From the NCBI GenBank assembly GCA_039799225.1, contig JBDLTF010000001.1, forward strand, positions 42,488 to 106,487: a DNA stretch of 64,000 bases, in the 5' to 3' direction. The notes beneath the pieces are model-generated. The model saw nothing but the letters and a program-made list of their open reading frames with translations. It had not been told where the DNA came from and did not search any database. This document shows positions 18,848 to 52,687 of the stretch, one piece after another. Position numbers and translations under genes: made by a program. This DNA comes from Candidatus Parcubacteria bacterium (GTDB lineage Bacteria; Patescibacteriota; Minisyncoccia; Phycocordibacterales; PALSA-1337). The stretch's first letter is position 1. Every line of letters starts with the position of its first letter.

Positions 18848-18861
18848 TAGAATAGTGGTGC

Positions 18862-19851: not shown

Positions 19852-19902
19852 AGTCAGAAACAAAAACAGTGATACCTGTCCACAGATACGGCCGAGAATC
19901 TA

Positions 19903-20802: not shown

Positions 20803-20811
20803 AACACACTT

Positions 20812-22416
20812 ATGAATATCATTAACAAAAAAATCGCTTCGGTCCTCATACTCATCGCTTTCGTCATCTCTGGCACTCTCGCAACGCCAGCAACGACCTA
20901 TGCACTTGGAGCGGTTCCCGTCGACACAACATTCAACTTCCATAGCATCCAGCAACAAACGAAGGATTTCGTGCTGAACTCACTCGCATGGAATGTGGCT
21001 AAGATGACGTTGCAGCAGCTCACGACGAGTATCGTGAACTGGATCAACACTGGATTCGAGGGAAGTCCTGCATTCATCGACAACCCTGAGGCATTCTTCC
21101 TTGACCTTGGCGACCAAGTCACTGGAAACTTCATTGCAAACGTCGGACCACTCCAAAGCCTCTGTTCTCCATGGAATATCGACCTCCGTCTCTCACTCGC
21201 ACTCGGACAAACACGTTCAATGAGCGAACGCTATCGCTGTACCTTGAGTACACTCATCGGTAACGCGCAGAATGCGACTATCAATGGCTACAGTATCGAA
21301 GGATTCACTTCTGGCGACTTCGCTCAAGGAGGATGGCCAGCATTCATGATCATGACGAGCGAACCTCGCAACAATCCATACGGATCATATCTTCAGGCGA
21401 AGAGTGACCTCGATCAGCAGATAGCCGCTAAACAAAACTCCGTCAACAGTGACCTCGACAGGGGACAGGGCTTCCTCTCGTGGCAAAAGTGCGTTCCTAC
21501 CAACGTGAACAGCAATACAGGAAATGCATCTTCTCTTGGTCTCAATCAGAACGACCTCGCTCAATTGAATGCAAATGGTTCAGTAAATGCGAACGGTACA
21601 AGCTACAAAACGAGTACTGATCCTGAAACAGGATATACCGTATACGAAACATGCTCCGTACAAACTCCTGGATCGGTCATCAGTGCAGGTCTCAATAAGA
21701 GCCTTGGATCAAGTGTGGACCAGCTCAACCTTGCTGACTCGATCAACGAAATTACGAGTGCACTCTTCGCTCAGCTCATATCTCAAGTCTTCACTAAGGG
21801 TCTCGGTGGAAGCAGTCAAAGGTCAGGTGGTCAGACACAGTCATACATCGAACAACTCAATGCACAGTCGAGAGGTGCTGGTGCATATTCAAACTCGACG
21901 CAGAATATCCAGGCAAGCTACGCAATATATCTCACTGATGCCCAGTCAATCGTCAGCACGTATCAGCAAGCTGTAGGTGCATTCGACACTACCCGCAGTA
22001 GCTTCTCGATTGCACAGGGTTGCTTCCAAGATATCGCTCTCGTAGCAACGAAGCAAACCATCAAGAATGAGGCTCAGCGCAATGCAGATGCAATACAGTC
22101 ACTACTCATCAACCAGTTCGGCCCAGCAGCGCTCATATATTCAGACAAGCTCTCTACAGCAAACAGAATAGTCAGTACGATCAATTCTCGCGTCAATTCG
22201 GCACAGAATATCACCGATGCTCAGAGTGCACAGACTGCTTCGAACCAGTTGCAGGAATTCATCGCCACCCAAGTCCCCGCTATCCAGCAAGGCAAAGATC
22301 TTGGCGCGGCAGATCTTACCGCAGCACGAGCTCAAGCAGCACAATTCAAGACGAATGCTGATCAATATATGAATATGTGTACTTCACTCAAAAGCCAATC
22401 AGGTTCCTCACGATAA
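20812..22416 (+). CDS. T4SS-like operon gene 3: secreted Gln/Ser/Asn-rich hypothetical protein
   Basis: 534 aa with signal peptide ending ...GTLATPATTYA. Confidence 0.5.
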   Translation: MNIINKKIASVLILIAFVISGTLATPATTYALGAVPVDTTFNFHSIQQQTKDFVLNSLAWNVAKMTLQQLTTSIVNWINTGFEGSPAFIDNPEAFFLDLGDQVTGNFIANVGPLQSLCSPWNIDLRLSLALGQTRSMSERYRCTLSTLIGNAQNATINGYSIEGFTSGDFAQGGWPAFMIMTSEPRNNPYGSYLQAKSDLDQQIAAKQNSVNSDLDRGQGFLSWQKCVPTNVNSNTGNASSLGLNQNDLAQLNANGSVNANGTSYKTSTDPETGYTVYETCSVQTPGSVISAGLNKSLGSSVDQLNLADSINEITSALFAQLISQVFTKGLGGSSQRSGGQTQSYIEQLNAQSRGAGAYSNSTQNIQASYAIYLTDAQSIVSTYQQAVGAFDTTRSSFSIAQGCFQDIALVATKQTIKNEAQRNADAIQSLLINQFGPAALIYSDKLSTANRIVSTINSRVNSAQNITDAQSAQTASNQLQEFIATQVPAIQQGKDLGAADLTAARAQAAQFKTNADQYMNMCTSLKSQSGSSR

Positions 22417-22434
22417 TCTACTATCACAGACTCC

Positions 22435-24354: not shown

Positions 24355-24363
24355 TATCATTAT

Positions 24364-25098
24364 ATGAAGCAAACACCTCAACAATTTAGAGACCTCGCTG
24401 ACTCAGCTGAACTCTACGACCGATCCGAAGCGATTGGCGCGAAATTTGGTCTGCTCATCGACCAAATAGGGGAGTTGGATGCAGAAATTCGCGACATTCT
24501 CAATGGTGTCAGTGATTCGGAAGACTTCATCAAGCACATCATCCAGCGTCTTGAGATAGACCGCGGACTCGCCGAAAAAATAGTAACGGAGGTCAATGTG
24601 GCCGTATTCCAAACACTCAAAGACCAGATGCAGGCACGAACGGATGCTCAGGATATACAAGACTCAATCTCGAGCGTAGAGAAAGTGGGTGATTTCAGGA
24701 TAGAGAAGGATAGAGTGCCTGCAGATCCGAAAGTTACTGCTGCGGATAGGAGCAAGATACTCGATAGTCTCGAAAATCCACCGGCTCAAGGAGGTGCGTA
24801 CCCAAAATCAGTCTCTACAGACCATACTGAACCTCTTGTCGACCATCTTCTTCAAAATTCAGTAGGACAGCTTGCGCCGAAGCCTCACCACGAAGCTCCA
24901 GCTCCAAGCAATCTCCCTGTAGTAGAAGAGATTCCTCTGAAAACACCTGCGCCAACTCCAATAAAAGCTCCAGCACCTACCGCCCCAAAGCCTGTTCAAG
25001 CACCAACACAACCGACAACTACTCCAGAAGTACCGAAAACTCCAGCACCTCAACCAAAAAGGTCTGGACCTGACCCTTATAGGGAACTAGCGAACTAG
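24364..25098 (+). CDS. T4SS-like operon gene 5: soluble protein with a Pro/Ala-rich C-terminus
   Basis: 244 aa. Confidence 0.45.
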   Translation: MKQTPQQFRDLADSAELYDRSEAIGAKFGLLIDQIGELDAEIRDILNGVSDSEDFIKHIIQRLEIDRGLAEKIVTEVNVAVFQTLKDQMQARTDAQDIQDSISSVEKVGDFRIEKDRVPADPKVTAADRSKILDSLENPPAQGGAYPKSVSTDHTEPLVDHLLQNSVGQLAPKPHHEAPAPSNLPVVEEIPLKTPAPTPIKAPAPTAPKPVQAPTQPTTTPEVPKTPAPQPKRSGPDPYRELAN

Positions 25099-25132
25099 CA
25101 CACATTCTCACTTGCCGGTATAATAAAGAGCA

Positions 25133-25564
25133 ATGCGCTATCAAGTCCCCCAATTTATCGAGGTTGAGGACAAGATCTTCGGCCCACTTACCTTGAAACA
25201 GTTCATATATCTCGCCGGCGGGGGAGGTCTCTCATTTTTGGCCTATGTATTTGTCGGTAGTCTCACTATCGCCATAGTACCTATCATTGTCATCATGGCA
25301 ATATCCTCTGCTCTGGCATTCTATCGAATCAATAACAAACCATTCGTTAACATCGTCGAATCTGCATTCAAATACTGGCTCGGTAGCAAGCTCTACATCT
25401 GGAAAAAAGAAGACAGGGCATCACAAACCGCGAAATCAGTTGATGCAGACATCAAGAACTACGCCTCAATCATGGTTCCGAAAATTTCTGATAGTAAGCT
25501 GAAGGATTTGAGTTGGAGCTTGGACATCAAAGAAAGTATGTACTCTGACAAGAAACAAAAATAA
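25133..25564 (+). CDS. T4SS-like operon gene 6: small two-TM protein of the VirB3/PrgI type
   Basis: 143 aa. Two adjacent TM helices, positioned immediately upstream of the VirB4 ORFs as in Gram-positive T4SS loci. Confidence 0.5.
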   Translation: MRYQVPQFIEVEDKIFGPLTLKQFIYLAGGGGLSFLAYVFVGSLTIAIVPIIVIMAISSALAFYRINNKPFVNIVESAFKYWLGSKLYIWKKEDRASQTAKSVDADIKNYASIMVPKISDSKLKDLSWSLDIKESMYSDKKQK

Positions 25565-26205
25565 TGGCTCCCAAACAATCAACAACTCAAGGATTTATAC
25601 CGATACAGGAGATTCGCGACGGCGTAGTCATCCTCAAGAACGGCGGTATGCGCGCAGTCGTCTTGGCGTCGTCTCTCAACTTCGCTCTCAAGTCACAGGA
25701 TGAGCAGAGCTCAATCCTTATGCAGTTCCAGAATTTTGTGAACTCACTCGATTTTTCCATACAAATATTCGTCCAGTCTAAGAAACTCGATATCAGACCA
25801 TACATCGCGCTTCTCGAAGACCGCTACAAAGAACAGGTGAGTGAGCTCATGAAGATTCAGGTTCGTGAATACATCGAATTCATCAAAACATTCGTCGAGA
25901 GTACCAACATCATGTCCAAGAGCTTCTTCGTGGTCATACCCTATGATCCACCTATTATGAGTGGTAGCAAAAATCCTCTCGCCAGCATGTTCCCAGGGAA
26001 GAGTGGTGACAAAACTGCAGCAGAGAGCTCAAATGCAAAATTCCAAGAATATCGCAGCCAACTCGAACAGCGTGTCGGCGTGGTAGAGCAGGGCCTCGTG
26101 CGTTGCGGTGTCCGTGCGGCTGAGCTTGGTACAGAAGAAGTAGTTGAGCTCTTCTACAAACTCTTCAACCCTGGCGAGACGGAGAAGCCAATTCAGATAA
26201 CTTAA
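25564..26205 (+). CDS. VirB4/TrsE-family ATPase, N-terminal segment (split gene)
   Basis: 213 aa. The N-terminus resembles the VirB4 N-terminal domain. It ends with TAA 5 nt before the next ORF, which is in a different frame. Confidence 0.55.
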   Translation: MAPKQSTTQGFIPIQEIRDGVVILKNGGMRAVVLASSLNFALKSQDEQSSILMQFQNFVNSLDFSIQIFVQSKKLDIRPYIALLEDRYKEQVSELMKIQVREYIEFIKTFVESTNIMSKSFFVVIPYDPPIMSGSKNPLASMFPGKSGDKTAAESSNAKFQEYRSQLEQRVGVVEQGLVRCGVRAAELGTEEVVELFYKLFNPGETEKPIQIT

Positions 26206-26210
26206 AAGAT

Positions 26211-28022
26211 ATGTCATTCCTCAACAAACTATTCGGAAAAAAAGAAGCTTCTCCTATCGTCTCAATCCTGCCCGAGGAGATCTATCAGGCTGGCGTCCTC
26301 GAACTCAAGGATGTTATTTCGCCATCAGCGCTCAAGGTGAGTCCGAAGGATATAAATCTCGGAGAAAAAGTTGGTCGCACACTCTTCGTCATCTCATACC
26401 CACGCTTCCTCGATGAGAGCTGGTTCGCGCCAATCATAAACCTCGACAAGATATTCAATATCTCCATATTCATACATCCTGTCGATACTGCGAAGATTTT
26501 GAGGCATTTCCAGAAGAAGGTTGCTGAAGTTCAGAGCCAGATCTCCCATAGGGAAGAGAAGGGTCTCGTTCGTGATCCAGCGCTCGATACCGCATACCAA
26601 GATCTCGAGCAGCTTCGCGATCAGCTCATGCAAGCACAGGAGCACCTCTTCGATGTTGGTGTGTATATTACTCTCTTCGCTGATAATGAGGGTGAGCTCG
26701 ACAAGCTTGAATCAGAGATCAAGTCTATCCTCGAGTCCAAGCTTATCTATGTGAAGCCAGCTCTCTTCCAACAGGAACAGGGATTCAAGTCTGTTATTCC
26801 GATCGCTGACGATCAGCTCGCCGTTCATTCCAAGCTCAACTCGTCACCGCTCTCATCTCTTTTTCCATTCGTCTCATTCGACCTCACCTCAGACAAGGGA
26901 ATCCTCTACGGTATCAACCGTCACAACTCATCACTCGTACTCTTCGATCGCTACTCACTCGAGAACTACAACTCGGTGACTTTCGCCGTTGCCGGTGCTG
27001 GAAAATCCTACAACACCAAGCTTGAGATCCTCCGAACACTCATGTTTGATGTCGACGTCATAGTCATCGACCCTGAGAAGGAATATGAATACATGGCGGA
27101 AGCAACAGGAGGGAAGTACTTCAATATCTCACTCAACTCAGAGCACCACATAAACCCATTCGATCTTCCGATACCACGCGAGGATGAGTCTGGTGCAGAT
27201 GTGCTCCGCTCAAACATCATCAACCTTGTCGGTCTCTTCCGCATCATGTTGGGAGGTCTCACACAAGAAGAAGATGCAATCATAGATCGTGCCATCACTG
27301 AAACTTACGCCCTCAAAGATATCACTCCTGAGGCTGATTTCCGCACCGTCGAACCACCACTTCTCTCCGACTTTGAGCTCGTGCTTGCCGGCATGGAAGG
27401 GGGAGAATCTCTTGTGCAGAGGCTCTCGAAATATACCAAAGGAACTTGGTCAGGCTTCATCAATAGGCCGTCAAACATCGATATCAATAAGAAATTCGCT
27501 GTGTTTTCACTCCGCGACATGGAAGATGAGCTCAAGCCAGTGGCCATGTACATCGTCACACACTACATCTGGAATGCTATCCGCAAGAACCTCAAGAAGC
27601 GCCTTCTTGTTATCGATGAGGCGTGGTGGATGATGAAATCAGAGGACACGGCTTCATTCTTGTTCAGCCTCGCCAAGCGTGGTCGTAAATACTTCCTCGG
27701 TCTCGCCACAATCACTCAGGACGTGGATGACTTCTTGAATTCACCGTATGGACTGCCGATTGTGACCAACTCCTCAATCCAGATTCTTTTGAAACAGTCA
27801 CCAACTGTTATTGATCACGTCCAGAAGACTTTCAACCTCACTGATGAAGAGAAATACCTCTTGCTCGAGTCAGACGTAGGGGAGGGTATATTCTTCGTGG
27901 GTCTCAAGCACGTCGCCATCAAAATCGTCGCCTCATATACTGAAGACCAAATCATCACCACCAACCCTGCTCAGGTTTTGAGCATACAGCAATCAAAGAA
28001 GGATCTTGAGCAGGCTGGGTAA
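26211..28022 (+). CDS. VirB4/TrsE/CagE-family T4SS ATPase (ATPase domain)
   Basis: 603 aa. Walker A FAVAGAGKSY, Walker B RLLVIDEAWWMM, and motif ATITQDVDDF. Confidence 0.75.
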   Translation: MSFLNKLFGKKEASPIVSILPEEIYQAGVLELKDVISPSALKVSPKDINLGEKVGRTLFVISYPRFLDESWFAPIINLDKIFNISIFIHPVDTAKILRHFQKKVAEVQSQISHREEKGLVRDPALDTAYQDLEQLRDQLMQAQEHLFDVGVYITLFADNEGELDKLESEIKSILESKLIYVKPALFQQEQGFKSVIPIADDQLAVHSKLNSSPLSSLFPFVSFDLTSDKGILYGINRHNSSLVLFDRYSLENYNSVTFAVAGAGKSYNTKLEILRTLMFDVDVIVIDPEKEYEYMAEATGGKYFNISLNSEHHINPFDLPIPREDESGADVLRSNIINLVGLFRIMLGGLTQEEDAIIDRAITETYALKDITPEADFRTVEPPLLSDFELVLAGMEGGESLVQRLSKYTKGTWSGFINRPSNIDINKKFAVFSLRDMEDELKPVAMYIVTHYIWNAIRKNLKKRLLVIDEAWWMMKSEDTASFLFSLAKRGRKYFLGLATITQDVDDFLNSPYGLPIVTNSSIQILLKQSPTVIDHVQKTFNLTDEEKYLLLESDVGEGIFFVGLKHVAIKIVASYTEDQIITTNPAQVLSIQQSKKDLEQAG

Positions 28023-28509
28023 CATCATTATGGATACAAATCCCAAAAAGAGAACTCTTGCAAAGATAGTCCTTTTCGGATTTTCTGCAATCGTAGACTT
28101 CGCTCAGGTACTCATAACCTTCACTGGTGTCGGTATAGTGGTGAGTGAAGCGATTGAGATTGCTATGCCATTTGCCTTATTCGCACTATTCACTATATTC
28201 AAGATATCTATCATCAATAAACCGAGAAGAGTGGCATCTATGCTTGCTGTCGGATTTGGAGATGCTTTGACGGGTGGTGTAGCGCCATTTTGGGTATTCG
28301 ATGTCTACTATATATTCCGAGATGTGGCCAGAGAAGACGCCCTTATAAATTCAGAACGAGAACAATCTGAAGCCTTGGCAAACACCACAATGCAGCCTTT
28401 ATACCAAAATGGTGTCAGACAGCCACAATCTCAGCCTAATGAAAGACCACAGAACAAACTCAACAAAAATGGTATCCGAGCACCTGGAGGAGGACTGGTC
28501 AAAAGCTAG
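28006..28509 (+). CDS. T4SS-like operon gene 9: small membrane protein with three TM helices
   Basis: 167 aa. Confidence 0.45.
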   Translation: MSRLGNIIMDTNPKKRTLAKIVLFGFSAIVDFAQVLITFTGVGIVVSEAIEIAMPFALFALFTIFKISIINKPRRVASMLAVGFGDALTGGVAPFWVFDVYYIFRDVAREDALINSEREQSEALANTTMQPLYQNGVRQPQSQPNERPQNKLNKNGIRAPGGGLVKS

Positions 28510-28562
28510 CCTATACACATTTTTCATCGCATATAGAGCGTAATATTGCTAAAATAGAGTCA

Positions 28563-29597
28563 ATGAACTCTCGTTTTCTCTCATTTTTGATTGTATGCAT
28601 TTGCATCTCTTTCTTGTGGGTATCTACTGTTTCAGCCCAGACCATACCTACAGGAATTAGTGGCCTCGTCATCGAGACGTCGTCTTCCAATCCGTACCCA
28701 GGACAGGAGGTAACGGTAACACTCAAAAGCTACTCTATAGACATAGACTCTTCGACTATATCTTGGTCCATAAACGGGAAAGCTGTCCAGAGCGGTATAG
28801 GTACAAAAACCGTCAAAGTAATCGCCCCTGACCTTGGAAAATCATTGGTGGTATCTGTAAGCGCTCGTGCAAGCTCTGGAGCGACAATGTCTGATTCAAT
28901 AACAATAAGCCCAAGCTCCGTCGACATGATAGTGGAATCAGATGGCTATGTGCACCCACTCTTCTCAGGAAAAGTATCTCCACGATATCAGAACGTGGTC
29001 AAAATAATTGCTGTACCACATCTCAGCGCAGCCAACGGAACAGAATACGACCCGAAGACACTCATATATACTTGGAAAAAGGGAAGTACTGTACTCCAAG
29101 ACCAGTCCGGTTATGGTAAACAGTCTATCTATCTCGCAGGAGACATCGTTCCACGACCATACGAGGTGACTGTGTCGATCGCTACGCGTGATGGTGGTGC
29201 ACAAGGACAAGGAACTTTGTCCATCGGCGCAACAAACCCATCAATAGGATTCTATGTCACCGATCCGCTCTACGGAACTTTCTTCAATAAGGCTGTGACT
29301 AACACTGTACGCATAGGTTCAGAGAAGGAGACTTCTGTTCTCGCTGTACCATTCGGATTTAACAAGCCTATAGATGGTATCGGGAATCTTTCATTGACCT
29401 GGCTCATCAACAGTATCAAACACTCTGAACTAGCTTCTAGCCAATCTGTCATTTTGCGCGCACCTGAAGGATCTGCAGGAACATCCAACATACGCCTCGA
29501 TATCAGGAATAGCGATAAGATTCTACAGAGCGCAAGTACTGGATTCTCAGCGAGCTTCACTGGGAATACTGAAAGCGAGGAAGATGTCTCATTCTAA
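28563..29597 (+). CDS. T4SS-like operon gene 10: secreted beta-rich hypothetical protein
   Basis: 344 aa with a signal peptide. Confidence 0.5.
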   Translation: MNSRFLSFLIVCICISFLWVSTVSAQTIPTGISGLVIETSSSNPYPGQEVTVTLKSYSIDIDSSTISWSINGKAVQSGIGTKTVKVIAPDLGKSLVVSVSARASSGATMSDSITISPSSVDMIVESDGYVHPLFSGKVSPRYQNVVKIIAVPHLSAANGTEYDPKTLIYTWKKGSTVLQDQSGYGKQSIYLAGDIVPRPYEVTVSIATRDGGAQGQGTLSIGATNPSIGFYVTDPLYGTFFNKAVTNTVRIGSEKETSVLAVPFGFNKPIDGIGNLSLTWLINSIKHSELASSQSVILRAPEGSAGTSNIRLDIRNSDKILQSASTGFSASFTGNTESEEDVSF

Positions 29598-29606
29598 TCA
29601 TTTCTC

Positions 29607-30764
29607 ATGAATACACTTATGAAAAAAACATGCACACTAGCCTTAGCGACATATATCATCGCCGTATCCATCGCACCGATAACTATATATGCAGATACTG
29701 GATCAAATACCACCTCTGGAAATTCTGTCGCGACCTATACATTGCTTGAACCATTACCTTGTCTCAATGACGGAACACAAAAATGTACGGATGGGGGGAT
29801 AGTTACACAGGTAAACTTCGCCGACTATGTTCGTTATATGTTCAATTTGATTATTGCACTCTCAGCCGTTGCGGCAGTGCTCGTCATTGTCGCTGGAGGA
29901 TTCAAATATGTCACCACCGACTCATTCCAAGGCAAGAATGACGGAAAGAAGATGATACTTGAGGCACTCAAAGGACTTCTGCTGGTACTCTGTTCTTACC
30001 TTATCCTCAGAACAATCGACCCTCGTCTTGTGGATATACCTTCGACAATAGTGAAGCCTCTTCCGATCAGTTATCAAAAAGGAGTGACTTACGGTTATTT
30101 CGACCAGCTCGCATCAGAAGCTAGCAAGTATAATGCGAATGATCGAGCAGCCGTACTCGCTCGAGAAGTAGCGAAGAAACAGACTCAGGATCTCAAAAAT
30201 CAGCTGGATATAATTGACGAGAAGCTAGGAAAAATATACAGCGGTGATGCAGAAGCGACTCAGGAAGAAATAAATTCACTGAGTAAACAACGTGCGCTTA
30301 TTTCTGATCAGATAAATGGAACTATTTCTGAGGCAACAATACAAAATGCTATTGCTATATACAACGCACAAATGCGAAATGTGGTTGACCCTAAGGATGA
30401 AGTCACTCTCGACACGATAGAAGCCTACCTGAATAACATTCAGAAAGTGAATGCTTCAACACAAGAACAACTCAACAAGAATTTGAATGAAGAGACACCT
30501 GAGCAGAAAGAAAAGCTCGCAAATGAAAAATCCTATTCGGAAGCTAGAATACTCATAGTGAAATACGAACATTTCACCACTTCGCTCGATCCAAAAGCAG
30601 TTGATGCTGCAATAGCAAAACTGAATTCACTAAAGACAACCACTATCGCATCGATTACTGACAAAACACGAAGAGATGAATTGACCAGCGCTGCAGATAA
30701 AGCGATCGAGAGCTTGAAGGCAAGCATTAGCACTGACGCTTATGATGGTGGTGTAATGTATTAA
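29607..30764 (+). CDS. T4SS-like operon gene 11: signal peptide plus two hydrophobic helices separated by a short loop (VirB2/TrbC-pilin-like topology), then a roughly 230-aa coiled-coil extension
   Basis: 385 aa. Confidence 0.4.
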   Translation: MNTLMKKTCTLALATYIIAVSIAPITIYADTGSNTTSGNSVATYTLLEPLPCLNDGTQKCTDGGIVTQVNFADYVRYMFNLIIALSAVAAVLVIVAGGFKYVTTDSFQGKNDGKKMILEALKGLLLVLCSYLILRTIDPRLVDIPSTIVKPLPISYQKGVTYGYFDQLASEASKYNANDRAAVLAREVAKKQTQDLKNQLDIIDEKLGKIYSGDAEATQEEINSLSKQRALISDQINGTISEATIQNAIAIYNAQMRNVVDPKDEVTLDTIEAYLNNIQKVNASTQEQLNKNLNEETPEQKEKLANEKSYSEARILIVKYEHFTTSLDPKAVDAAIAKLNSLKTTTIASITDKTRRDELTSAADKAIESLKASISTDAYDGGVMY

Positions 30765-30777
30765 TCGATAGATTTCT

Positions 30778-32100
30778 ATGAAAAAAATCCTCCCCGTACT
30801 CCTCATATTCCTCATCCTCGCAGCCACGGGGTATTGGTATTTCTTCATGCGCACATCAACAACTGGTACAACACCTGATACGACTGGAACTGATCAGCAG
30901 GGAGGATTCCAGCCATTTGGAAGACCTTCAACAGGAGGTCAGCAAGGAACAGAGACCGGGAGCATTCCTGTAGTTTCAACAAGCACTGATGTATCAACTC
31001 CAGTCAAAATACCCACCCTCCGCCTCTTGAGTGCTACGCCTGTCGGAGGATACGGCGCCAGCACGACCGCTAGCACGACCGTTATACGTTGGGTAGATCG
31101 CGGAAGGGGCAACATATACGAGGCACGTGGTAACACTCTCGATACCATCACTATATCCAATACCATCGTTCCAAGGATATACCAAAGTATATGGAATAAG
31201 GCCGCAAATGCATTTATCGCTTCAACACTCGACGAGGATGGAGCATCTATAGGCTCAGTCTACGCCGACATCAAAGCCCGCATCATTCCCAAGGCTGCTA
31301 CAAGCACCTCGGCCACAAGCACACCTAGACTCGGACTTGGAGTAGGGGCGGATGGGCAGACTATCACTCCTTATGAGCTTAAGGGTAAAAACCTTCCTGA
31401 GAATATCGTTGCATACGCCGCATCTCCGAAGAGAGACAAACTTTTCATGCTTGTCGATGATAATGGTACTGGCATAGGCTATGTATCCACATTCGATGGA
31501 AAGTCCGTGACTCAGATCTTCAGCACTCCACTCACCCAACTCAATGTAGAATGGCCTGAGGAGAATACGATTGCTCTAACAACAAAGGGTACAGCTAGCG
31601 AAGGGGGGTACCTCTACTTTGTTAACGCAAAGACAGGTATCTGGAGTAAAATTCTCGGTCCACTCGCGGGTATAAGTACTCGTGTGAGTACTGATGCCAA
31701 GCGTGTACTTGTATCTACCACCGGTAGCAACAAGAATGTTCTTGCGAGTATTTATACCGTTGCCGACAAGAAGGGTATAGATGCAATCGTCAGAACACTC
31801 GCCGACAAATGTATTTGGGGTAATTTCTATAAAGAAATGGTGTACTGTGCGACACCATCACAACCAACAGCAGGAATATATCCTGATGACTGGTACACAG
31901 GAACTATTTCGACCGTAGACAAGATATGGCAGATCAACGGAGCAACGGGGGAGATTCAACTCGTCTCTTCTATAATCGATACTTCCGACCGTGTCATCAA
32001 TGCATTCAATCTCGGTCTAGATCAGAAGGACAACTTCCTCTTCTTCATGAATAAAGATGACTTATCTCTCTGGTCACTCGACTTGGTTTCAAGCAACTAG
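30778..32100 (+). CDS. T4SS-like operon gene 12: membrane-anchored or secreted hypothetical protein
   Basis: 440 aa with an N-terminal TM. Confidence 0.5.
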   Translation: MKKILPVLLIFLILAATGYWYFFMRTSTTGTTPDTTGTDQQGGFQPFGRPSTGGQQGTETGSIPVVSTSTDVSTPVKIPTLRLLSATPVGGYGASTTASTTVIRWVDRGRGNIYEARGNTLDTITISNTIVPRIYQSIWNKAANAFIASTLDEDGASIGSVYADIKARIIPKAATSTSATSTPRLGLGVGADGQTITPYELKGKNLPENIVAYAASPKRDKLFMLVDDNGTGIGYVSTFDGKSVTQIFSTPLTQLNVEWPEENTIALTTKGTASEGGYLYFVNAKTGIWSKILGPLAGISTRVSTDAKRVLVSTTGSNKNVLASIYTVADKKGIDAIVRTLADKCIWGNFYKEMVYCATPSQPTAGIYPDDWYTGTISTVDKIWQINGATGEIQLVSSIIDTSDRVINAFNLGLDQKDNFLFFMNKDDLSLWSLDLVSSN

Positions 32101-32114
32101 AATAGCTTGGTAAC

Positions 32115-32145
32115 AAAAAAGCACATCTCTCAATGTGCTTTTTTG
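32115..32145. terminator. Bidirectional terminator aaaaaagcacat-ctctca-atgtgctttttt between the convergent operon and yidC
   Basis: Perfect hairpin with A/T runs. Confidence 0.6.
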
Positions 32146-32154
32146 TTACTGGAA

Positions 32155-33370: not shown

Positions 33371-33423
33371 AGGTGCATACTATAAATCAAAACTGATAAT
33401 TTCGCAAGTATTTAGAGTTTCTA

Positions 33424-33541
33424 CTAGAACACAAGGAAAGATGTGTGCAAACTGCCATGTAGGCACAGTGAATTACATATAATGTCCTCCAAGAAACTTT
33501 GCCGGTATGGCAGTTTGCACACATCTTTCCTTGTGTTCTAG
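33424..33541. promoter_or_regulatory. Perfect 35-bp inverted repeat (ctagaacacaaggaaagatgtgtgcaaactgccat, arms at 33424-33458 and 33507-33541) in the rpmH-dnaA intergenic region. Putative oriC or dnaA-promoter element, flanked by DnaA-box-like TTATCAACA.
   Basis: Exact reverse-complement match of 35 nt around a 48-nt spacer. Confidence 0.5.
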
Positions 33542-33628
33542 TTGTCCCCAACTTATCAACATAAATTTTATCTCTCCACAAGTTTGCAAATCTATAAACA
33601 GGTATATACTTACTGGGCATCAAATCCT

Positions 33629-34975: not shown

Positions 34976-35200
34976 TTGGGGAAAAGTCTGTGAATAAGTT
35001 GTATATAGAGTAGGAAAAGTCTGTGGGTAAACCGATAAGTAATACACATAAACATCTCAGGAAAAAACCAGATAAAAACTTTCAACAAGATGTTTAAAAT
35101 AAAAAACCTATAGCACTCATATCTGAAGCCATTAAATTAATTTATACACATACCCACAGGACTAATAACGAATGTGTGATTAAATAAATAAAAAACTACT
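34976..35200. promoter_or_regulatory. Putative oriC: AT-rich dnaA-dnaN spacer with DnaA-box-like 9-mers TGTGAATAA, TGTGGGTAA, and CCACAGG on the opposite strand
   Basis: Boxes one mismatch from TTATCCACA, AT-rich runs (the DNA unwinding element), and a position typical of Firmicutes-type origins. Confidence 0.5.
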
Positions 35201-36307: not shown

Positions 36308-36568
36308 ATGCTTAATATATCTGAATTCTTCAAGAGGGTGCAGGGAAAGCATGCGAAAGAAGTCGTCGTAAGGACTTCTGTATGTGATGCTATACGTAAG
36401 TATGCAGGATTTGATATCCCTATGGAGAAGGTTAATTTCAATTCAGATACAGTAGTTCTTGAAGGACTTACTGCAATGCAAAAATCTCAGATCTATATCA
36501 AGAAGCAAGCTATTCTCGACGAAGCCAATTCTCAGCAGTCTATTCGTGTGATAGGGGATATTAGGTAG
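36308..36568 (+). CDS. Small protein after dnaN, possibly DUF721/DciA-like
   Basis: 86 aa. Only the position and size suggest this. Confidence 0.3.
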   Translation: MLNISEFFKRVQGKHAKEVVVRTSVCDAIRKYAGFDIPMEKVNFNSDTVVLEGLTAMQKSQIYIKKQAILDEANSQQSIRVIGDIR

Positions 36569-36570
36569 CT

Positions 36571-36684
36571 TCACAGAGCAGCGCGCATGTGTGCGGCAAC
36601 GCTGCATGCGCAGCTTCTTGAAATCATTTACATTTGTTCACTTCGCATGCAGCGTTGCCGCACACATGCGCGCTGCTCTGTGAT
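36571..36684. repeat. Giant perfect palindrome, element A: 40-bp arms tcacagagcagcgcgcatgtgtgcggcaacgctgcatgcg around a 34-nt AT-rich loop
   Basis: Exact reverse-complement arms. GC-rich. Shares the core GCGCATGTGTGCG(G)CAAC with the element at 51292-51410. Confidence 0.7.
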
Positions 36685-36696
36685 GATACTTATTTA

Positions 36697-39270
36697 CTAA
36701 CGGATAGAGAAGGTAGTCGAAGCAGTGGTCTTGTTGAAGATATTATCGTAGAGGGTCACAGAGAGTGTATTATCACCAGACAAGTTTCCTATATCTGAAG
36801 GGAAGAATGAGATGTTGAGAGGATCCTTCTCTGAAGTGAGAATATATTTACCATTGATGTATACCTCTGTCTTTCGTGCTGGGTAAGCGCCAGATACATT
36901 GAGTTTTATATTCAAGCTCTCACCTGACCCTATAGATACTCCTTGTGTTGGAGATATAAATGATACATGTGGGGATTTGTCAGGGAGGTGTATATCATCG
37001 GTGGCGGTAGGTATATCTATAGATGTGGCTTCTTTGAAGTCGGGATGCTCCTTCTGATAGTTTTCGAACCATTTCCTGACGCCGTATTCCCAGTATTCAT
37101 ACTGAGAATCATTGTTTGGATCCTTAGGAGCTTCACCACGAGGATCAATCTTGTTGATCCAATGGAGGATACTGTGAACATTGTTGAAAGCAACTTCTTT
37201 TCTAGTCTCAACCGGTGTGTATTCCGTTGCGATCTTTCCAGAAACAGAGTCTTTCCAGTATGATATGCCACCTTGCCATATACCACGCAATACAGGTTTA
37301 TTATCAGAGAGTGGGGGAGGAGGAGTCTGAAAATTCTCCGGAGGGAATGTATCGGCAACTTGAGACATGAATGCTCCCCAAACTGGTGCAATGATGAGAC
37401 CAGCTATATTTTGCTTCCTCGGAGTGGTGTCATTCTTTCCTGCCCAGGCTCCAACGACGAGGTTTGGTGTATAACCGACAGCCCACACGTCACGATAATC
37501 GTTGGTAGTACCAGTCTTGATGGCGACTTGGCGACCAACACTTTCACCGATAGGTTTGAGACTCTCCATGCGTACATTGGTGTCTGACAATATATCTGAT
37601 ATCTGGCGAGCAATCTCAGGCTTGAGTGCTTCTGTTGGGGTAGGAGATTCTGCGCTCTCAAGGATGGTTCCTTTGCTATCTTCTACGCGCAAAACTGACC
37701 TATATGGGTTGCGCATACCATCGTTGGCAAATACACCGTATGCACTCGTAAGCTCGAGAAGAGATACTTCACCACCTCCAAGCACGAGAGTGAGACCGTA
37801 TCGATCGGGCTCAGTAAGACTGGTGATACCCATATCTTCGGCGGTCTGAATCGATCTGTTGATTCCGGCGAGATAGAGAGCTTTCACCGCTGGTATGTTT
37901 CTAGAATGGGCCAGAGCCTCTCTGATAGTCATAGGACCTGGGAATGTATGATCGTATTCATCAGGTGAGTAACATACCTTTTTTGGATCTTCACCGTCCT
38001 TTTTAGGTTTACTTTCAACAGTACACTCAGTCGAGAATTCTGTTTCAACATCGAAGAGTACAGTCTCAGGCGTATATCCTCTCTCGAATGCTGTCGCGTA
38101 GACGAATGGCTTGAATGTGGATCCAGGCTGACGCTTAGCAAGAGCAATATTGAAATTTCCATCTATTTTTGGATCGAAGTAGTCTCGTGATCCAACCATA
38201 GTGAGTATGTCACCAGTTTTGGGATCGATAGCAACCATTGCAGTGTTACTTGCATTGAAGTTACTTTCGAGAGATGGTGTGAATTTTACGATCACATCCT
38301 CAGCCTTTTCTTGCATACCATAGTCGAGAGTGGTTATGATGCGCAAACCACCACTACTCACCATTTCTTCTCCGTATTTTTGAGTGACATAATCTTTTAC
38401 GAACATAACGAAGTGAGGTGCGCGGAGGCTTGAGTCATTCTTGGAGAGGAAAGTCACCTCTTCTGCAACAGCTGAATCACGTTCTTCTTCTGATATAAGC
38501 TTAAGATCAAGCATGCGCTTCAATACAAGCCTCTGTCTGCCGGTAAGGTCATCTCGATGTGTACCATACGGAGAATAATATGTTGGTGCCTGAGGTATCG
38601 CGGCGAGATAGGCAGCTTGAGCCAAAGTTACATCTTTTGCGGCTCTACCGAAGAATGCACGGCTCGCTTCTTCAACACCGAAGATAGTACCTCCATATGA
38701 GGTGTCATTGAGGTATGTTTCAAGGATTTGATCCTTGCTCATGACGCGGGTGAGCTTCACTGCGATAACCCACTCCTTGATCTTACGGGTGATAGTTTTG
38801 TCTTTGGTGAGAAGGGAGTTCTTCACGACCTGTTGAGTGATCGTAGACGCTCCTTGACCGTATCCACCAGTCGCGAGGTTCGCGAGCACGGCGCGGATGA
38901 TAGATGTCGGTTCGATGCCGATGTTGGTATAGAAATCAGAATCCTCAATAGCGATGGTTGCTTGCTGGATGAGTGGCGAGATTCCAGCAAGGGGAAGGGC
39001 AGTGCGCTTCGCATCTCTGCCAGTATCATAGAGGAGTATGGTGCCGGTTCGGTCATATATCTTGGTCGACTCGATGATCTTCCTATTCTGGAATGAATCG
39101 AGGTCTGGCATCTCAAGAGTTGCTACCCAGAGAGCTACTAAACCGGTCACTATGAATGCGCCAGAAATAGCCAAAATGATGGCTGATTTTGCGTGAGGAT
39201 GGAGATGTTTCTTTTTGTGGTGGGACATATTGCTAATAGTAGCAAATACCCCCACATGGCGAAAGGACAA
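36697..39270 (-). CDS. Class A penicillin-binding protein (bifunctional glycosyltransferase/transpeptidase, PBP1A-like)
   Basis: 857 aa. GT51 motifs EDSDFY and GASTITQQ, transpeptidase motifs STFKP, SRN and KTGT. Confidence 0.85.
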   Translation of the reverse strand: MSFRHVGVFATISNMSHHKKKHLHPHAKSAIILAISGAFIVTGLVALWVATLEMPDLDSFQNRKIIESTKIYDRTGTILLYDTGRDAKRTALPLAGISPLIQQATIAIEDSDFYTNIGIEPTSIIRAVLANLATGGYGQGASTITQQVVKNSLLTKDKTITRKIKEWVIAVKLTRVMSKDQILETYLNDTSYGGTIFGVEEASRAFFGRAAKDVTLAQAAYLAAIPQAPTYYSPYGTHRDDLTGRQRLVLKRMLDLKLISEEERDSAVAEEVTFLSKNDSSLRAPHFVMFVKDYVTQKYGEEMVSSGGLRIITTLDYGMQEKAEDVIVKFTPSLESNFNASNTAMVAIDPKTGDILTMVGSRDYFDPKIDGNFNIALAKRQPGSTFKPFVYATAFERGYTPETVLFDVETEFSTECTVESKPKKDGEDPKKVCYSPDEYDHTFPGPMTIREALAHSRNIPAVKALYLAGINRSIQTAEDMGITSLTEPDRYGLTLVLGGGEVSLLELTSAYGVFANDGMRNPYRSVLRVEDSKGTILESAESPTPTEALKPEIARQISDILSDTNVRMESLKPIGESVGRQVAIKTGTTNDYRDVWAVGYTPNLVVGAWAGKNDTTPRKQNIAGLIIAPVWGAFMSQVADTFPPENFQTPPPPLSDNKPVLRGIWQGGISYWKDSVSGKIATEYTPVETRKEVAFNNVHSILHWINKIDPRGEAPKDPNNDSQYEYWEYGVRKWFENYQKEHPDFKEATSIDIPTATDDIHLPDKSPHVSFISPTQGVSIGSGESLNIKLNVSGAYPARKTEVYINGKYILTSEKDPLNISFFPSDIGNLSGDNTLSVTLYDNIFNKTTASTTFSIR

Positions 39271-40214: not shown

Positions 40215-40253
40215 GGGTTAAGTATAGCGCACACATTTCTGTGTGCGCTCGAA

Positions 40254-49839: not shown

Positions 49840-50340
49840 ATGACCAATAACCAAGATACAACGACCAAGAATGTCCTGGAGATCAGGGTTATTTTGGATA
49901 ACATACGCAGTGTCCATAACGTGGGCTCCATATTCCGCACAGCTGACGCGGCGGGAGTATCGAAGCTATACCTTGTTGAAACTACACCTACGCCAGTCGA
50001 CCGCTTTGGCAGAAAAAGGAAAGATGTGGCGAAGGTCTCATTGGGGGCGGAAGATTCTATTCCTTGGGAGCATGTGGTGGATATAACGAAGACGATACAA
50101 GCACTCAAAAAAGAAGGATTCACTATTGTTGCGCTCGAGCAAGATGAGAAGTCTGTTGATTATCAATCTGTAAATTCAAAGAATAAGATTGCGCTCATTC
50201 TTGGAAATGAAGTTGGAGGTATTTCGAAAGAGATTCTTAAACTAGTCGATGTAATCATCGAGATACCTATGGCAGGGAAGAAAGAGTCCTTGAATGTATC
50301 GGTGGCTGCGGGGATCGCACTGTTTCAACTCAATCGCTGA
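49840..50340 (+). CDS. SpoU/TrmH-family RNA 2'-O-methyltransferase
   Basis: 166 aa. LDNIRSVHNVGSIFRTADAAGV, and a C-terminal SLNVSVAAGIALF. Confidence 0.75.
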   Translation: MTNNQDTTTKNVLEIRVILDNIRSVHNVGSIFRTADAAGVSKLYLVETTPTPVDRFGRKRKDVAKVSLGAEDSIPWEHVVDITKTIQALKKEGFTIVALEQDEKSVDYQSVNSKNKIALILGNEVGGISKEILKLVDVIIEIPMAGKKESLNVSVAAGIALFQLNR

Positions 50341-51245
50341 TGTGTATCGCAGAAGTGAGTACCTCTACCGCCAAGAACAATTCTGACAATCTTTCCGCCA
50401 CATCCTCTCTTCTCACATATCGATCCTGTTCTCTGGTACGCGCGATGTTTTTCGTGGAATTCTCCTTTGTTTCCATGAATGTTTCTATAATCTGACGTCG
50501 AGTCTCCGCCGAAGTTAATTCCTTTTGAAAGTGTTTGTTTCACTGCTGTGTAGAGTGATTTCATCTCTTTCACAGGTATGTTCGATACTTTCTGTACCGG
50601 ATGTATGCCTGCGCGCCAGAGTGATTCGTCCGCATATATATTTCCGATGCCTGCGATGATGCCCTGATCCATCAAGACTTGTTTGATCTTGCCATTCGGT
50701 TTGAGTTTCAATCTCGAAGCGAACTTCTCGAAGGTGAAGGTGTCATGCAATGGTTCGGGGCCAATAGTATTCAGATGATCTGAATCATGCAGCGTCTTCG
50801 AATCAATCAGTGTCACCTTGGCGAATTTCCTCACATCAGAAAGAGCGAGATGTTTTTTGTTCGAGAATGAAAGCATGAAATGAACATGTTTGTTGAACGG
50901 ATCTTTTAGCGACTCAGGTTCAATCGCTTCCCAAGGATCTTTTTTCATATCTTTGTTGAAATGATATCGACCATACAGAAGGTGACCGGTCATCTTGAGA
51001 TGCACGAGTAGGGTAGAACCATTCGAGAGACCTATCAATATATTCTTCGCACGTCGCTCGGCCGAAATGATTTTCGTATCAATAATCTGTTTTCTCATCT
51101 GCGCAAAATACGAACGATCTTTGATTGTTTCAGAACCTTTGAAATGCACGCTGTCATAATCAGACCATGCATCCACTATATGAAGACCGATCACGTTCTC
51201 ACGTAATCCATTTACTGTTGTCTGTACTTCGGGGAGTTCGGGCAT
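50325..51245 (-). CDS. mutM: Formamidopyrimidine-DNA glycosylase
   Basis: 306 aa. N-terminal MPELPEV, C-terminal zinc finger CxxC...CxxC. Confidence 0.85.
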   Translation of the reverse strand: MPELPEVQTTVNGLRENVIGLHIVDAWSDYDSVHFKGSETIKDRSYFAQMRKQIIDTKIISAERRAKNILIGLSNGSTLLVHLKMTGHLLYGRYHFNKDMKKDPWEAIEPESLKDPFNKHVHFMLSFSNKKHLALSDVRKFAKVTLIDSKTLHDSDHLNTIGPEPLHDTFTFEKFASRLKLKPNGKIKQVLMDQGIIAGIGNIYADESLWRAGIHPVQKVSNIPVKEMKSLYTAVKQTLSKGINFGGDSTSDYRNIHGNKGEFHEKHRAYQRTGSICEKRGCGGKIVRIVLGGRGTHFCDTHQRLS

Positions 51246-51291
51246 ATCTCAAGTTAAGAGCAAACGAGCGCAAAGCGCAAGTTAGTGTTAT

Positions 51292-51410
51292 AGACACCCC
51301 GCAGGCGGCGCATGTGTGCGCAACATGGTACACGTAGTTTCTTAATATAATCTATACCTGTTCACTGCGTGTACCATGTTGCGCACACATGCGCCGCCTG
51401 CGGGGTGTCT
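51292..51410. repeat. Giant perfect palindrome, element B: 43-bp arms agacaccccgcaggcggcgcatgtgtgcgcaacatggtacacg around a 33-nt AT-rich loop, lying between divergent genes
   Basis: Exact reverse-complement arms. Shares the GCGCATGTGTGCG...CAAC core with 36571-36684. Confidence 0.7.
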
Positions 51411-51430
51411 GCTATACTATGTGCAATATT

Positions 51431-52687
51431 ATGCGCCACTATATAGCCCTCGCTATCCTCATAAGCTTATTCCTGACGCCCTGGATGGCGACTCATTTTC
51501 CTGAACAAGCTGCTCGCCTCGCGGGATATATTGAGAATGTAGGAAGTCAGATTGCCGCAATAGTGACTCACAACCCACGTACCATTGCAGGGCTCCAGAA
51601 GAAGTATTCCGTGGACGCGGAGAGGGGAAGAGCGAAGATTCGAGTGGTCCTCATTCCTGGTCATGAGCCTGGATATGGTGGTGCGGAGTACGGCGATCTC
51701 AAAGAGCGCGATCTCACTGTGCAGCTTGCTGGTGAACTCGCGAATTTCCTTCGTATGAACAGTAAATATGAAGTTGTTATTGCACGCGACGATAAGGCGT
51801 GGAATCCTATTTTCCAGAACTATTTCGATAATTCATGGGACAGCATTATTGAATGGCAGAAGGCTCACAAAGCTGAGTCTCTCCGCCAGGTCACAGAGGT
51901 GGATACAGATTTTGTACCCAAGGTGCACCATAACAGTGCACCCAATGATGTTGCATATCGTCTCTACGGTATTACCAAGTGGTCCAATGAGAACGCAGTC
52001 GACATAGCCGTACATATTCACTTCAATGATTACCCAGGTCACGGATGGAAAATTCCTGGAGAGTACAGCGGGTTCTCTATATATGTTCCAGAAGCCCAGT
52101 ATTTGAACAGCACCACGACGCGTGCTATCGCGGAGACAGTCTTCAAGCGTCTGGCGAAATACAATGCAGTTTCTGATTTTCAGGGAGAATCAGCCGGCAT
52201 CGTCGACGAACGAGAGCTTATAGCTATCGGTGCAAATAATACTGCTGACGCGGCAAGCTTACTTGTCGAGTATGCATATCTCTATGAACAGCAGATCGCA
52301 AATCCAGAGACACGTACGCTCGCGCTCAAGGACCTAGCTTACCAAACATACCTTGGTCTCGAGGATTTCTTCAATCAAGGCAAGGCAACAGTCGCCTCGA
52401 CAGCATATGATACGTTGACCCTTCCTCATACATGGAGTAGTCCACTCTCAGAGACAGTTGCATCTATGGGTGATGTGTATGCGCTTCAGACCGCACTTCT
52501 TCTCGATGGTGTGTATCCTCCAGGAAACAGAAGCAAGAATGATTGTCCACGCACGGGGAAGATAGGTCCATGCACGAAGGAGGCTATCAAGGAGTTTCAA
52601 AATAAATATGGTTTGGAGGTAACAGGTACAATAGGCCCTAAGACATTGGAGAAGCTCAACGGCCTCTATTCAGTGAAGCCTATTTAA
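51431..52687 (+). CDS. N-acetylmuramoyl-L-alanine amidase (Amidase_3) with a C-terminal peptidoglycan-binding domain
   Basis: MurNAc-LAA motifs (IPGHEPG, GAEY.., HFN), C-terminal PG_binding_1-like LQTALLLDG...TGTIGPKT. The start is set at 51431 because the 51389 start lies inside the palindrome arm. Confidence 0.7.
   Translation: MRHYIALAILISLFLTPWMATHFPEQAARLAGYIENVGSQIAAIVTHNPRTIAGLQKKYSVDAERGRAKIRVVLIPGHEPGYGGAEYGDLKERDLTVQLAGELANFLRMNSKYEVVIARDDKAWNPIFQNYFDNSWDSIIEWQKAHKAESLRQVTEVDTDFVPKVHHNSAPNDVAYRLYGITKWSNENAVDIAVHIHFNDYPGHGWKIPGEYSGFSIYVPEAQYLNSTTTRAIAETVFKRLAKYNAVSDFQGESAGIVDERELIAIGANNTADAASLLVEYAYLYEQQIANPETRTLALKDLAYQTYLGLEDFFNQGKATVASTAYDTLTLPHTWSSPLSETVASMGDVYALQTALLLDGVYPPGNRSKNDCPRTGKIGPCTKEAIKEFQNKYGLEVTGTIGPKTLEKLNGLYSVKPI

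Follow-up and report, generated by a model that had tools for sequence, protein, structure and literature searches.

A giant palindrome between divergent fpg and amidase promoters of a Candidatus Parcubacteria bacterium: a candidate REPIN/MITE-like cassette

Described hairpin repeats and the palindrome upstream of the amidase gene

REPINs are doublets of repetitive extragenic palindromic (REP) sequences that form hairpins and are mobilised by RAYT transposases (Bertels and Rainey; PMC3116915, PMC3337134). Judged by analogy, they are the closest known kind to the giant palindrome described here, designated copy B, which lies upstream of an amidase gene in a 64,000-nucleotide stretch of a Candidatus Parcubacteria genome (contig JBDLTF010000001.1; hereafter the window). 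The source is a bacterium of the candidate phyla radiation (CPR), in the Paceibacterota/Taylorbacteria group. Like REPINs, copy B and related palindromes are intergenic and about 100–130 nt long, with a REP-like imperfect palindrome in each arm and inverted arms that form one long, spacer-bearing hairpin. Copy B has inverted arms with GCGCA-TGTG-TGCGC in each, and its 47-bp hairpin has a z of about -15. Further likenesses are genome-specific, vertically inherited families, presence/absence and decayed singlets at orthologous sites, and pairing that is held despite sequence change. Nevertheless, the window has three copies per 64 kb with only a 17-nt box in common, as against the hundreds of near-identical 16-mers of REPINs, and here the centre is most conserved and the arms most variable. 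The cognate RAYT of a REPIN is a single-copy, IS200-like gene that is usually flanked by REPs, whereas no RAYT/Y1_Tnp gene was found among the approximately 50 window proteins. Also unlike REPINs, the cassettes sit inside older hairpins and are substituted in their entirety between genomes that are nearly identical.

Bacterial miniature inverted-repeat transposable elements (MITEs) and other palindromic repeats (Correia/NEMIS, ERIC/IRU, RUP and the GTAG/CGTC-tagged REP superfamilies; PMC3733652) are likewise non-coding, hairpin-forming, intergenic and patchy between strains, and often stand beside promoters or terminators that they are able to alter. In MITEs, however, the terminal inverted repeats are conserved, the interior varies and a target-site duplication is present, whereas the termini of the present cassettes are locus-specific, no duplication was seen and the centre is conserved. 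Hairpin elements of organelles (sponge mitochondrial RHEs, PMC2800124; Volvox palindromic repeats, PMC2670323) are also lineage-specific, invade the spacers of small compact genomes and turn over rapidly, with no enzyme known. They belong to other hosts and are usually shorter and very numerous. We know of no description of organelle elements that nest in terminator dyads and have a conserved, oriented centre.

Quasipalindrome template switching in E. coli and yeast extends or perfects imperfect inverted repeats (PMC7202029, PMC3820800), and template switching can also create long perfect hairpins in a single event (PMC10710096). Its products resemble the present hairpins, but it is a mutational process rather than an element, and alone it cannot explain a box and centre common to unlinked loci. 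Stem-loop TIGR arrays and their tigRNAs (PMC12045711; bioRxiv 10.64898/2026.09.09.750476) share with the palindromes CPR hosts and variable palindromic stems around a centre with conserved edges. A stem-loop tigRNA comprises two units of box C (CNA), 9-nt spacer and box D (YG), at most 15 nt apart in the stem, in arrays near a Nop-domain tas gene (bioRxiv 10.64898/2026.09.09.750476). In copy B, by contrast, the centre is 25 nt long rather than about 37 nt, the stem is far longer, the location is probably untranscribed, and there is neither an array nor a nearby tas gene. Searching the literature on palindromic repeats in CPR bacteria yielded no description of elements such as these.

With a probability of about one half, copy B is a non-coding palindromic cassette of REPIN/MITE-like kind, belonging to a lineage-specific Paceibacteria/Taylorbacteria family that would be mobile or gene-converted and perfected by template switching.

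Copy B, its sister copies and the flanking promoters

The initial annotation had placed a giant palindrome at 51292-51410, and this palindrome is real. An ungapped scan returned a core with exactly these limits (51292-51338 / 51364-51410), in which 46 of 47 positions are paired and one is mismatched. A repeat search extended the arms to 56 nt each, 91% complementary and separated by 25 nt. Folding of the + strand as RNA gave -110.2 kcal/mol compared with -47.5 ± 4.0 in 200 shuffles (z = -15.8); the - strand gave z = -17.3, and the DNA fold -67.1 kcal/mol (z = -15.2). From the outside in, copy B consists of an outer stem derived from a short hairpin, the box GCGCATGTGTGCGCAAC, an inner stem complementary to the box and the oriented apical module (Table 1). 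The outer 13-17 nt or so of the left arm (AGACACCCCGCAGGCGG) are homologous to the entire short hairpin present at the same site in relatives. The box is itself a mini-palindrome (GCGCA-TGTG-TGCGC) and is also complementary to the inner stem GTACACGT, which makes each arm REP-like. Together with its closing pairs, the centre reads AGTTTCTT (51336-51343) ... TTCACT (51361-51366) and thus has a defined orientation.

An assembly artefact was considered and rejected, given unique flanks on both sides, recurrence across many independent metagenome-assembled genomes and independent unitigs entering the arms. The latter are Logan unitigs of the same strain, built from reads of an independent set. They enter the left arms of copy B and of copy A, described below, with identical sequence and break there, as expected where inverted repeats exceed k.

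A second palindrome reported at 36571-36684 (copy A) and copy B do form one family, as had been proposed, sharing arm sequence and the central junction. A third copy, C, had been overlooked. Each arm of A and B carries GCGCATGTGTGCG(G)CAAC. The central junction AGYTTCTT-N15/16-TTCACT was found only in copies A, B and C within 1.44 Mb of window and related loci. When the three copies are aligned, 16 of 40 pairs stay paired through changes on both sides, and the outer 13-17 bp of the arms differ, being locus-specific. The box pairs with the inner stem as ATGTGTGC..GTACACGT in B and as GCGCATG..CATGCGC in A. Nine occurrences of ATGTGTGC were counted in 64 kb (2.0 expected), seven of them in hairpins. 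Similarly, 13 of the 24 occurrences of the box GCACACAT fall in the non-coding 10.6%, a five-fold enrichment, and this box also builds the stems of ordinary short hairpins in the window. The full 16-mer seed occurs within the window only in the two arms of copy A. A lone, unpaired family box (TAGCACACATTCTC) is seen at 25090-25130, directly after the stop of the open reading frame (ORF) 24364-25098 and ahead of a TATAAT element; it could be a hairpin remnant or seed.

Copy B is flanked by fpg/nei (50325-51245, minus strand) and by the gene of an Amidase_3 and PG_binding_1 protein (Pfam). Its right arm runs, as first noted, through the upstream ATG at 51389-51391 (CACATGCGC). The accompanying proposal that the amidase starts at 51431 and not at 51389 was confirmed: of the 60 orthologues inspected, nearly all start with MR(H/Y)Y, in most cases as MRHYIAL. 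A conserved N-terminal extension was sought among them and not found, the few longer orthologues carrying unrelated extensions. In every orthologous locus, moreover, TGCTATACT or TGCTATAAT lies 9-12 nt ahead of the amidase ATG, leaving a very short leader; since ATG 51389 is upstream of this conserved -10 element, it cannot be the amidase start. On the other side, the fpg promoter (TTGCRC-17 nt-TTWACT-6 nt-ATG) is kept in orthologues, as read from the sequences of the related loci L081, L083, L091, L093 and L095. It begins 2 nt to the left of the palindrome, and the amidase -10 begins at the palindrome's right base.

These promoter assignments rest on conservation and consensus, and a consensus scan detected no sigma-70 promoter inside or overlapping copy B. 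Assuming that the hairpin contains no promoter, we infer that copy B occupies an untranscribed spacer, which separates the core promoters of the divergent fpg and amidase genes. A recurrent promoter-like element, (TC)TGCTATAAT/GCTATACT, was also noted 6-12 nt before start codons at 51410-51418, at 40216-40226 (minus strand), and at about 4240-4262 and 4543-4565 of the loci L001 and L002. The comparison suggests that extended -10 promoters with leaderless or very-short-leader mRNAs may be widespread in the lineage.

The initial annotation had further read the hairpin as a cis-regulatory element acting on the amidase leader, in the 5′ untranslated region or promoter of both divergent genes. Copy B does lie between the two genes and occupies the place where an amidase -35 element would lie, and it may exert a local promoter effect, for example by cruciform extrusion replacing a -35 region. 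The broader proposal is nevertheless extremely unlikely: the hairpin is outside both putative transcription units, is not conserved at this site in close relatives that retain both promoters, and has sister copies in unrelated contexts, convergent genes included. Judged from this sequence comparison, fpg and the amidase gene do not have hairpin B as a conserved regulatory device.

Intrinsic terminators are short G+C-rich hairpins, of about 5-15 bp, that stand downstream of a gene and run into a U-tract. Assignment of copy B to this class was rejected, given its position between divergent promoters, its 47-bp stem and the lack of a flanking T-tract; copy A, which does stand at a terminator position, is also without T-tracts.

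Giant hairpins in related genomes and their turnover

The census covered the window and about 95 related loci (1.46 Mb), and hairpins with at least 24 pairs were counted. There were 42, compared with none in shuffled sequence. Setting aside unrelated repeat types left 33 giant hairpins, with stems of 27-47 bp and centres of 25-70 nt. All 33 are intergenic, in divergent (12), tandem (11) and convergent (8) contexts, and stop codons at a distance of 1-20 nt or directly adjoining TCTGCTATAAT promoters are frequent; this promoter element follows giant hairpins at loci other than site B as well. Orthologous spacers recur among them, namely rpmH-dnaA (12 of 33), those after dnaN, after yidC and after a TraG-like gene, and yebC-ruvC. 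Stem length upstream of dnaA is bimodal (at least 26 pairs in seven loci, 12-15 in two and fewer than 12 in 32), which marks the giant hairpins as a distinct class. Three further loci, together about 57 kb, contained no giant hairpin.

The apical modules group by genome. Their similarity averages 15.6 within genomes and 8.0 between genomes; many within-genome pairs score 25-44 (top 29-44), as against a between-genome 95th percentile of 15. One apical family, F1 (ATTTTTCTGCTGAAAAATTCC...GCTCGCGCC), is found in eight genomes at five different intergenic sites. Its centre of about 50 nt holds two small perfect hairpins, ATTTTTC-TGCT-GAAAAAT and a GC-rich one, that covary between genomes. In the spacer downstream of yidC, giant hairpins occur in four genomes (L002, L009, L013 and L019) and represent four different families. 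Each of these families is seen again, at another site of the same genome or, in the case of F1, in further genomes; the L002 and L013 versions keep the GCACA(CA)T stem.

The arms of the 33 hairpins are 96% paired though they differ between copies, and 12 of the 33 are perfect. Mismatches comprise 12 G-T, 8 A-C and 27 of transversion type, with no wobble excess. The missing G-T excess points to maintenance of the arms at the DNA level rather than by selection on an RNA helix.

This bears on the possibility that the hairpins are structured non-coding RNA genes, producing either an RNase III-processed hairpin RNA or a stand-alone TIGR-Tas stem-loop guide whose variable central 15 nt would be the guide. 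Such a role is very unlikely. A variable stem with conserved nucleotides near the centre does resemble stem-loop tigRNAs, in which stems diverge even within an array (bioRxiv 10.64898/2026.09.09.750476), and the centres have conserved ends and a variable middle of 15-16 nt. The two covarying hairpins of the F1 centres also fit an RNA. Nevertheless, the small hairpins are perfect Watson-Crick helices, the mismatches show no G-U bias, and copies B and C lie upstream of both flanking putative promoters, so that they are probably untranscribed; the promoter that an RNA gene would need there is not evident. None of A, B and C contains the box C/spacer/box D pattern, which five of the 33 hairpins show, as against 5.7 in shuffles. 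No Nop/Tas gene is present in the window, the elements are single and scattered rather than arrayed, and the variable 15-mers have no target in the window at up to two mismatches. At the gathering threshold, Rfam identified only tRNAs in the whole window. At a permissive threshold, copy B matched only generic miRNA-precursor models at no more than 50 bits (thresholds 83-100), and seven related loci, F1 included, matched nothing.

At site B, the flanking promoters are conserved across relatives and the hairpin is not. The loci L081, L085 and L082, with an amidase 76% identical to that of the window, have only AGAGACCCCGC-AG-GCGGGGTCTCT, an 11-bp hairpin corresponding to B's outer stem (z = -5.3). 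L083 (84%) has just the outer portion of the right arm, GCACACATGCGCACACCTGCGGTGGTCTGC, which meets the left flank precisely at the box's inner edge. No hairpin is present in L091 (80%), L095 and L151; L091 reads TATAAGTC followed by GTCTGCTATAAT, a tiny dyad at the position of B's base. L093 and L094 (75%) carry a different, bulged giant hairpin with a homologous base and a ATGTGTGT box.

The window was also compared with its closest relatives, identified by DnaA identity (L001, 97%; L002, 93%). At site C, the flanks of the window and L001 are 96-97% identical, and an interior of about 100 nt is at random-level identity, with only the stem base CTACTnnAACACA kept. Interiors at random identity between near-identical flanks indicate replacement rather than point mutation, and each resembles other copies of its own genome. 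At site A, the only palindrome in L001 is a perfect one of 17 bp, of terminator type. The loops of short hairpins appear within the stems of giant ones at three sites: AG became AG/CT at site B, TTTC became TTTTT/AAAAA at yebC-ruvC (window 40226-40249 vs L013 16524, where the giant hairpin 16524-16639 carries the same box), and CTCTCA became CCTC/GAGG at the yidC terminator (window 32110-32149 vs L013 8455). Comparison of empty and filled sites at B (L091 and L081 vs the window) and at C showed no direct target-site duplication; the former loop was duplicated in inverted orientation. Sequence comparison shows gain, loss, truncation and replacement of cassettes at a pace far above that of change in their flanks, and nesting of the cassettes in older short hairpins.

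Several of these features would also be expected if each palindrome had been made in place by one or a few template-switch or fold-back events, as a mutational by-product with neither mobility nor function. The arms are perfect, former loop bases have an inverted second copy at three sites, and the arms are nested mini-palindromes of one GCGCATGTGTGC motif. The right-arm sequence is unique DNA in L083, and single template switches are documented to make hairpins de novo (PMC10710096). On the other hand, such events would leave unexplained the 17-nt box and oriented junction common to three unlinked loci of one genome, and the genome-specific apical families across loci, including F1 at five sites in eight genomes. 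Neither arm of the window's copy C is present at site C in L001, and the inner stem and centre of B (about 63 nt) have no source in the spacer of relatives. An origin by mutation alone is thus considered unlikely.

A host function is slightly less so, although still doubtful. The hairpins would then be exaggerated bidirectional terminators or insulators, or cruciforms that organise promoters or the origin, with apical modules as protein-binding sites in a compact genome. Nineteen of the 33 stand at terminator positions, 1-20 nt past stop codons and just before the next promoter. Copy A fills the whole gap between two convergent stop codons, of an 86-aa ORF after dnaN (TAG 36566-36568) and of PBP1a (36697-36699), and ordinary A-tract/stem/T-tract terminators occupy the same sites in relatives. 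An apical core is conserved at one orthologous site (L006/L033) despite divergence of the arms. There is also an approximately 3.5-fold enrichment in the rpmH-dnaA spacer beside DnaA boxes; copy C lies here, with the rpmH promoter on one side and the DnaA-box/dnaA promoter block on the other, and the true dnaA ATG (33630) follows about 88 nt downstream. However, copies B and C are flanked by divergent promoters, a position that calls for no terminator, and B has no T-tract. Giant hairpins are absent from 32 of 41 sites upstream of dnaA and from most orthologues of site B, with the flanking promoters unchanged. Replacement of a whole interior between 96-97% identical genomes is atypical evolution for a selected operator or terminator, and ordinary short terminators are plentiful in the same window.

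Further observations concern the arrangement of the hairpins. L019 has five giant hairpins in 21 kb; two of these (9651-9768 and 9857-9982) are of one family in opposite orientations, with a spacer of about 90 nt between them, just upstream of dnaA. Copies A and B (+) and C (-) would be co-oriented with replication if the origin were between C and A, and four L019 copies fit this rule; it fails for L041, L002 and two F1 copies, and no claim is made. Similar short hairpins, GCATGAC(A/G)C-loop-G(T/C)GTCATGC, were seen at 384-405 and 2082-2103, each just downstream of a minus-strand tRNA-Gly gene, and the GTCATGC motif also adjoins the centres of giant hairpins in the sister genome L001. A different repeat, TTGTCATTCCCGCGAAAGCGGGAATC (an ATTCCC-N8-GGGAAT hairpin with a GAAA loop), forms inverted pairs in more distant relatives (L053 2121-2197, 4042-4111 and 8475-8562; L055 1662-1734). 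We take it to resemble the neisserial dRS3-type motif.

Proposed origin, genomic context and significance

The favoured explanation, a REPIN/MITE-like cassette, would proceed as follows. A cassette would enter at a dyad or at the loop of a pre-existing hairpin. It would spread within the genome, or be swapped between copies, through an insertion akin to transposition or through gene conversion for which the shared box provides the seed. As the DNA is replicated, intrastrand template switching, known as quasipalindrome correction, would then copy one arm onto the other, and pairing would extend outward until it met constrained sequence such as stop codons and -35 and -10 elements. Template switching would account for the perfect arms, the conversion of loop to stem, and arms that end at stop codons or promoter hexamers. 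Copy B lies outside the amidase coding sequence and putative leader and would be dispensable for fpg and the amidase gene. Any cruciform or insulator effect, or strong bidirectional termination at copy A, would be secondary.

Several points weigh against this explanation. No transposase and no RAYT/IS200-type, HUH or Nop-domain protein was found by Pfam scan among the approximately 50 window proteins; the only tyrosine recombinase is of Xer type and lies 45 kb from copy B. No target-site duplication is definable. Copy number is low (three per 64 kb) and the shared parts are only the 17-nt box and the junction motif, not long near-identical stretches, which is unlike recently transposed MITEs or REPINs. 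The short hairpin at site B could be a deletion product between GCGG direct repeats instead of an ancestral landing site, and the L083 state is most simply a deletion derivative. At the orthologous site of L006 and L033, an 18-nt apical core is conserved and the arms are totally different. Such a core suggests functional constraint, which could reflect a host function rather than selfish spread, and the enrichment upstream of dnaA (12 of 33) could reflect an origin-related role.

There is some room for a distinct, previously undescribed kind: a dyad-targeting replicator or converting element of CPR bacteria, with an oriented apical module, a box and self-perfecting arms, or else an origin-linked structure. 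An element of the former sort would settle at the dyads of terminator or other intergenic hairpins already in place and gain progressively longer arms; its copies would evolve in concert within one genome and be swapped between nearly identical ones. This is a tentative option, clearly less probable than the REPIN/MITE-like cassette. If true, a dyad-targeting element would imply a structure-specific enzyme, for example an HUH or hairpin-nicking activity on lagging-strand hairpins, and it might act at the replication origin, the site of a third of the copies.

Three other identities were tried and rejected. The centre motif TGTTCAC is at most half of a parS site (TGTTNCACGTGAAACA), and the true parS sites are elsewhere in the window: four near-consensus sites (0-2 mismatches) at 1637-1652, 2294-2309, 3327-3342 and 3375-3390, with nine strand-matches vs 2.0 expected. 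This cluster is about 30 kb from dnaA, and two of its sites are inside a CCA-adding/poly(A) polymerase-like gene (2440-3933). Integron attC sites have R''/L''-L'/R' boxes (RYYYAAC...GTTRRRY) and stand in cassette arrays beside intI. GCGCAAC/GTTGCGC of copy B does not fit RYYYAAC, its flanks are housekeeping genes, and the sole tyrosine recombinase is Xer-like and 45 kb away. As to a phage origin, an arm-box scan of viral contigs gave 50 single, unpaired matches, attributable to chance, and a scan with the F1 centre gave one match in a coding region with no palindrome.

The origin region lies within the window, where the gene order is yidC-rnpA-rpmH, then dnaA-dnaN, and the cumulative GC skew is lowest at about 32 kb. 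DnaA boxes are found beside copy C and in the dnaA-dnaN spacer, with no DnaA-box cluster inside the hairpin. Two parts of a likely oriC were noted: the AT-rich dnaA-dnaN spacer 34976-35200, with DnaA boxes TGTGAATAA, TGTGGGTAA and TTATACACA, and, at 33553-33600, a strongly conserved block that precedes dnaA (TTATCAACA, TCTCCACAA, TTGCAA...TATACT). When called mechanically from TTG 33542, the dnaA ORF comes out too long; both its orthologues and the conserved promoter indicate ATG 33630 (MNDFTKMW) as the start. Adjoining the origin, a long run of same-strand genes (approximately 18860-32100) is nearly without Pfam matches save for PrgI (25133-25564) and a TraG/VirB4-type P-loop ATPase (26211-28022), and resembles the type IV secretion or conjugation-like clusters that CPR genomes typically carry. 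In the relative represented by L007 and L149, a REP_ORF2-G2P (rolling-circle Rep-like) gene stands beside that of a large serine recombinase (L149 18568-21223), both probably part of an integrated element; the 42 kb examined of this genome contained no giant hairpins.

Table 1. Positions of copy B, related hairpins and putative promoters (window coordinates unless a locus is named)
Feature	Position	Strand	Remarks
Copy B palindrome	51283..51419		137 bases; upstream of the amidase gene; inverted-repeat search
Copy B left arm	51283..51338		near-perfect core 51292-51338
Copy B right arm	51364..51419		near-perfect core 51364-51410; holds non-functional ATG 51389
Copy B unpaired centre (apical module)	51339..51363	+	25 nt, TTCTTAATATAATCTATACCTGTTC
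Conserved arm box GCGCATGTGTGCGCAAC	51308..51324	+	mirrored at 51378-51394
Putative amidase promoter, extended -10 TGC-TATACT (TGCTATACT)	51410..51418	+	conserved in all orthologous loci; true start ATG 51431-51433
Putative fpg/nei promoter, leaderless type	51252..51280	-	-35 TTGCGC 51275-51280, 17-nt spacer, -10 TTAACT 51252-51257, 6 nt, ATG 51243-51245
Copy A	36562..36692	+	arms 36562-36613 / 36641-36692; same family and orientation as B
Copy C	33423..33542	-	arms 33423-33469 / 33496-33542; same family, inverted orientation
Short hairpin AGCGCACACA-TTTC-TGTGTGCGCT	40226..40249		between yebC and ruvC; carries the family box only
Bidirectional terminator-type palindrome GTAACAAAAAAGCACAT-CTCTCA-ATGTGCTTTTTTGTTAC	32110..32149		downstream of yidC; ordinary short type
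F1 copies	L009 8366-8495, L013 16524-16639, L019 16538-16652, L017 19979-20109, L064 4259-4388, L073 4396-4511, L076 9890-10001, L079 20428-20556		

For annotation, the amidase start should be moved to 51431; palindromes of this kind can create false upstream starts, and they break short-read CPR assemblies. CPR genomes rank with the most streamlined known and are regarded as repeat-poor. Some CPR lineages nonetheless tolerate perfect palindromes of 100-130 bp at terminators, between divergent promoters and beside DnaA boxes. With a turnover faster than that of their flanks, the cassettes could serve as strain-level markers, and the class is a natural system for the birth, perfection and loss of palindromes in organisms whose repair machinery is reduced. 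Should a dedicated enzyme or a function at origins or terminators be found, the hairpins would count as mobile or regulatory DNA of a new class, in a major radiation of uncultured organisms.

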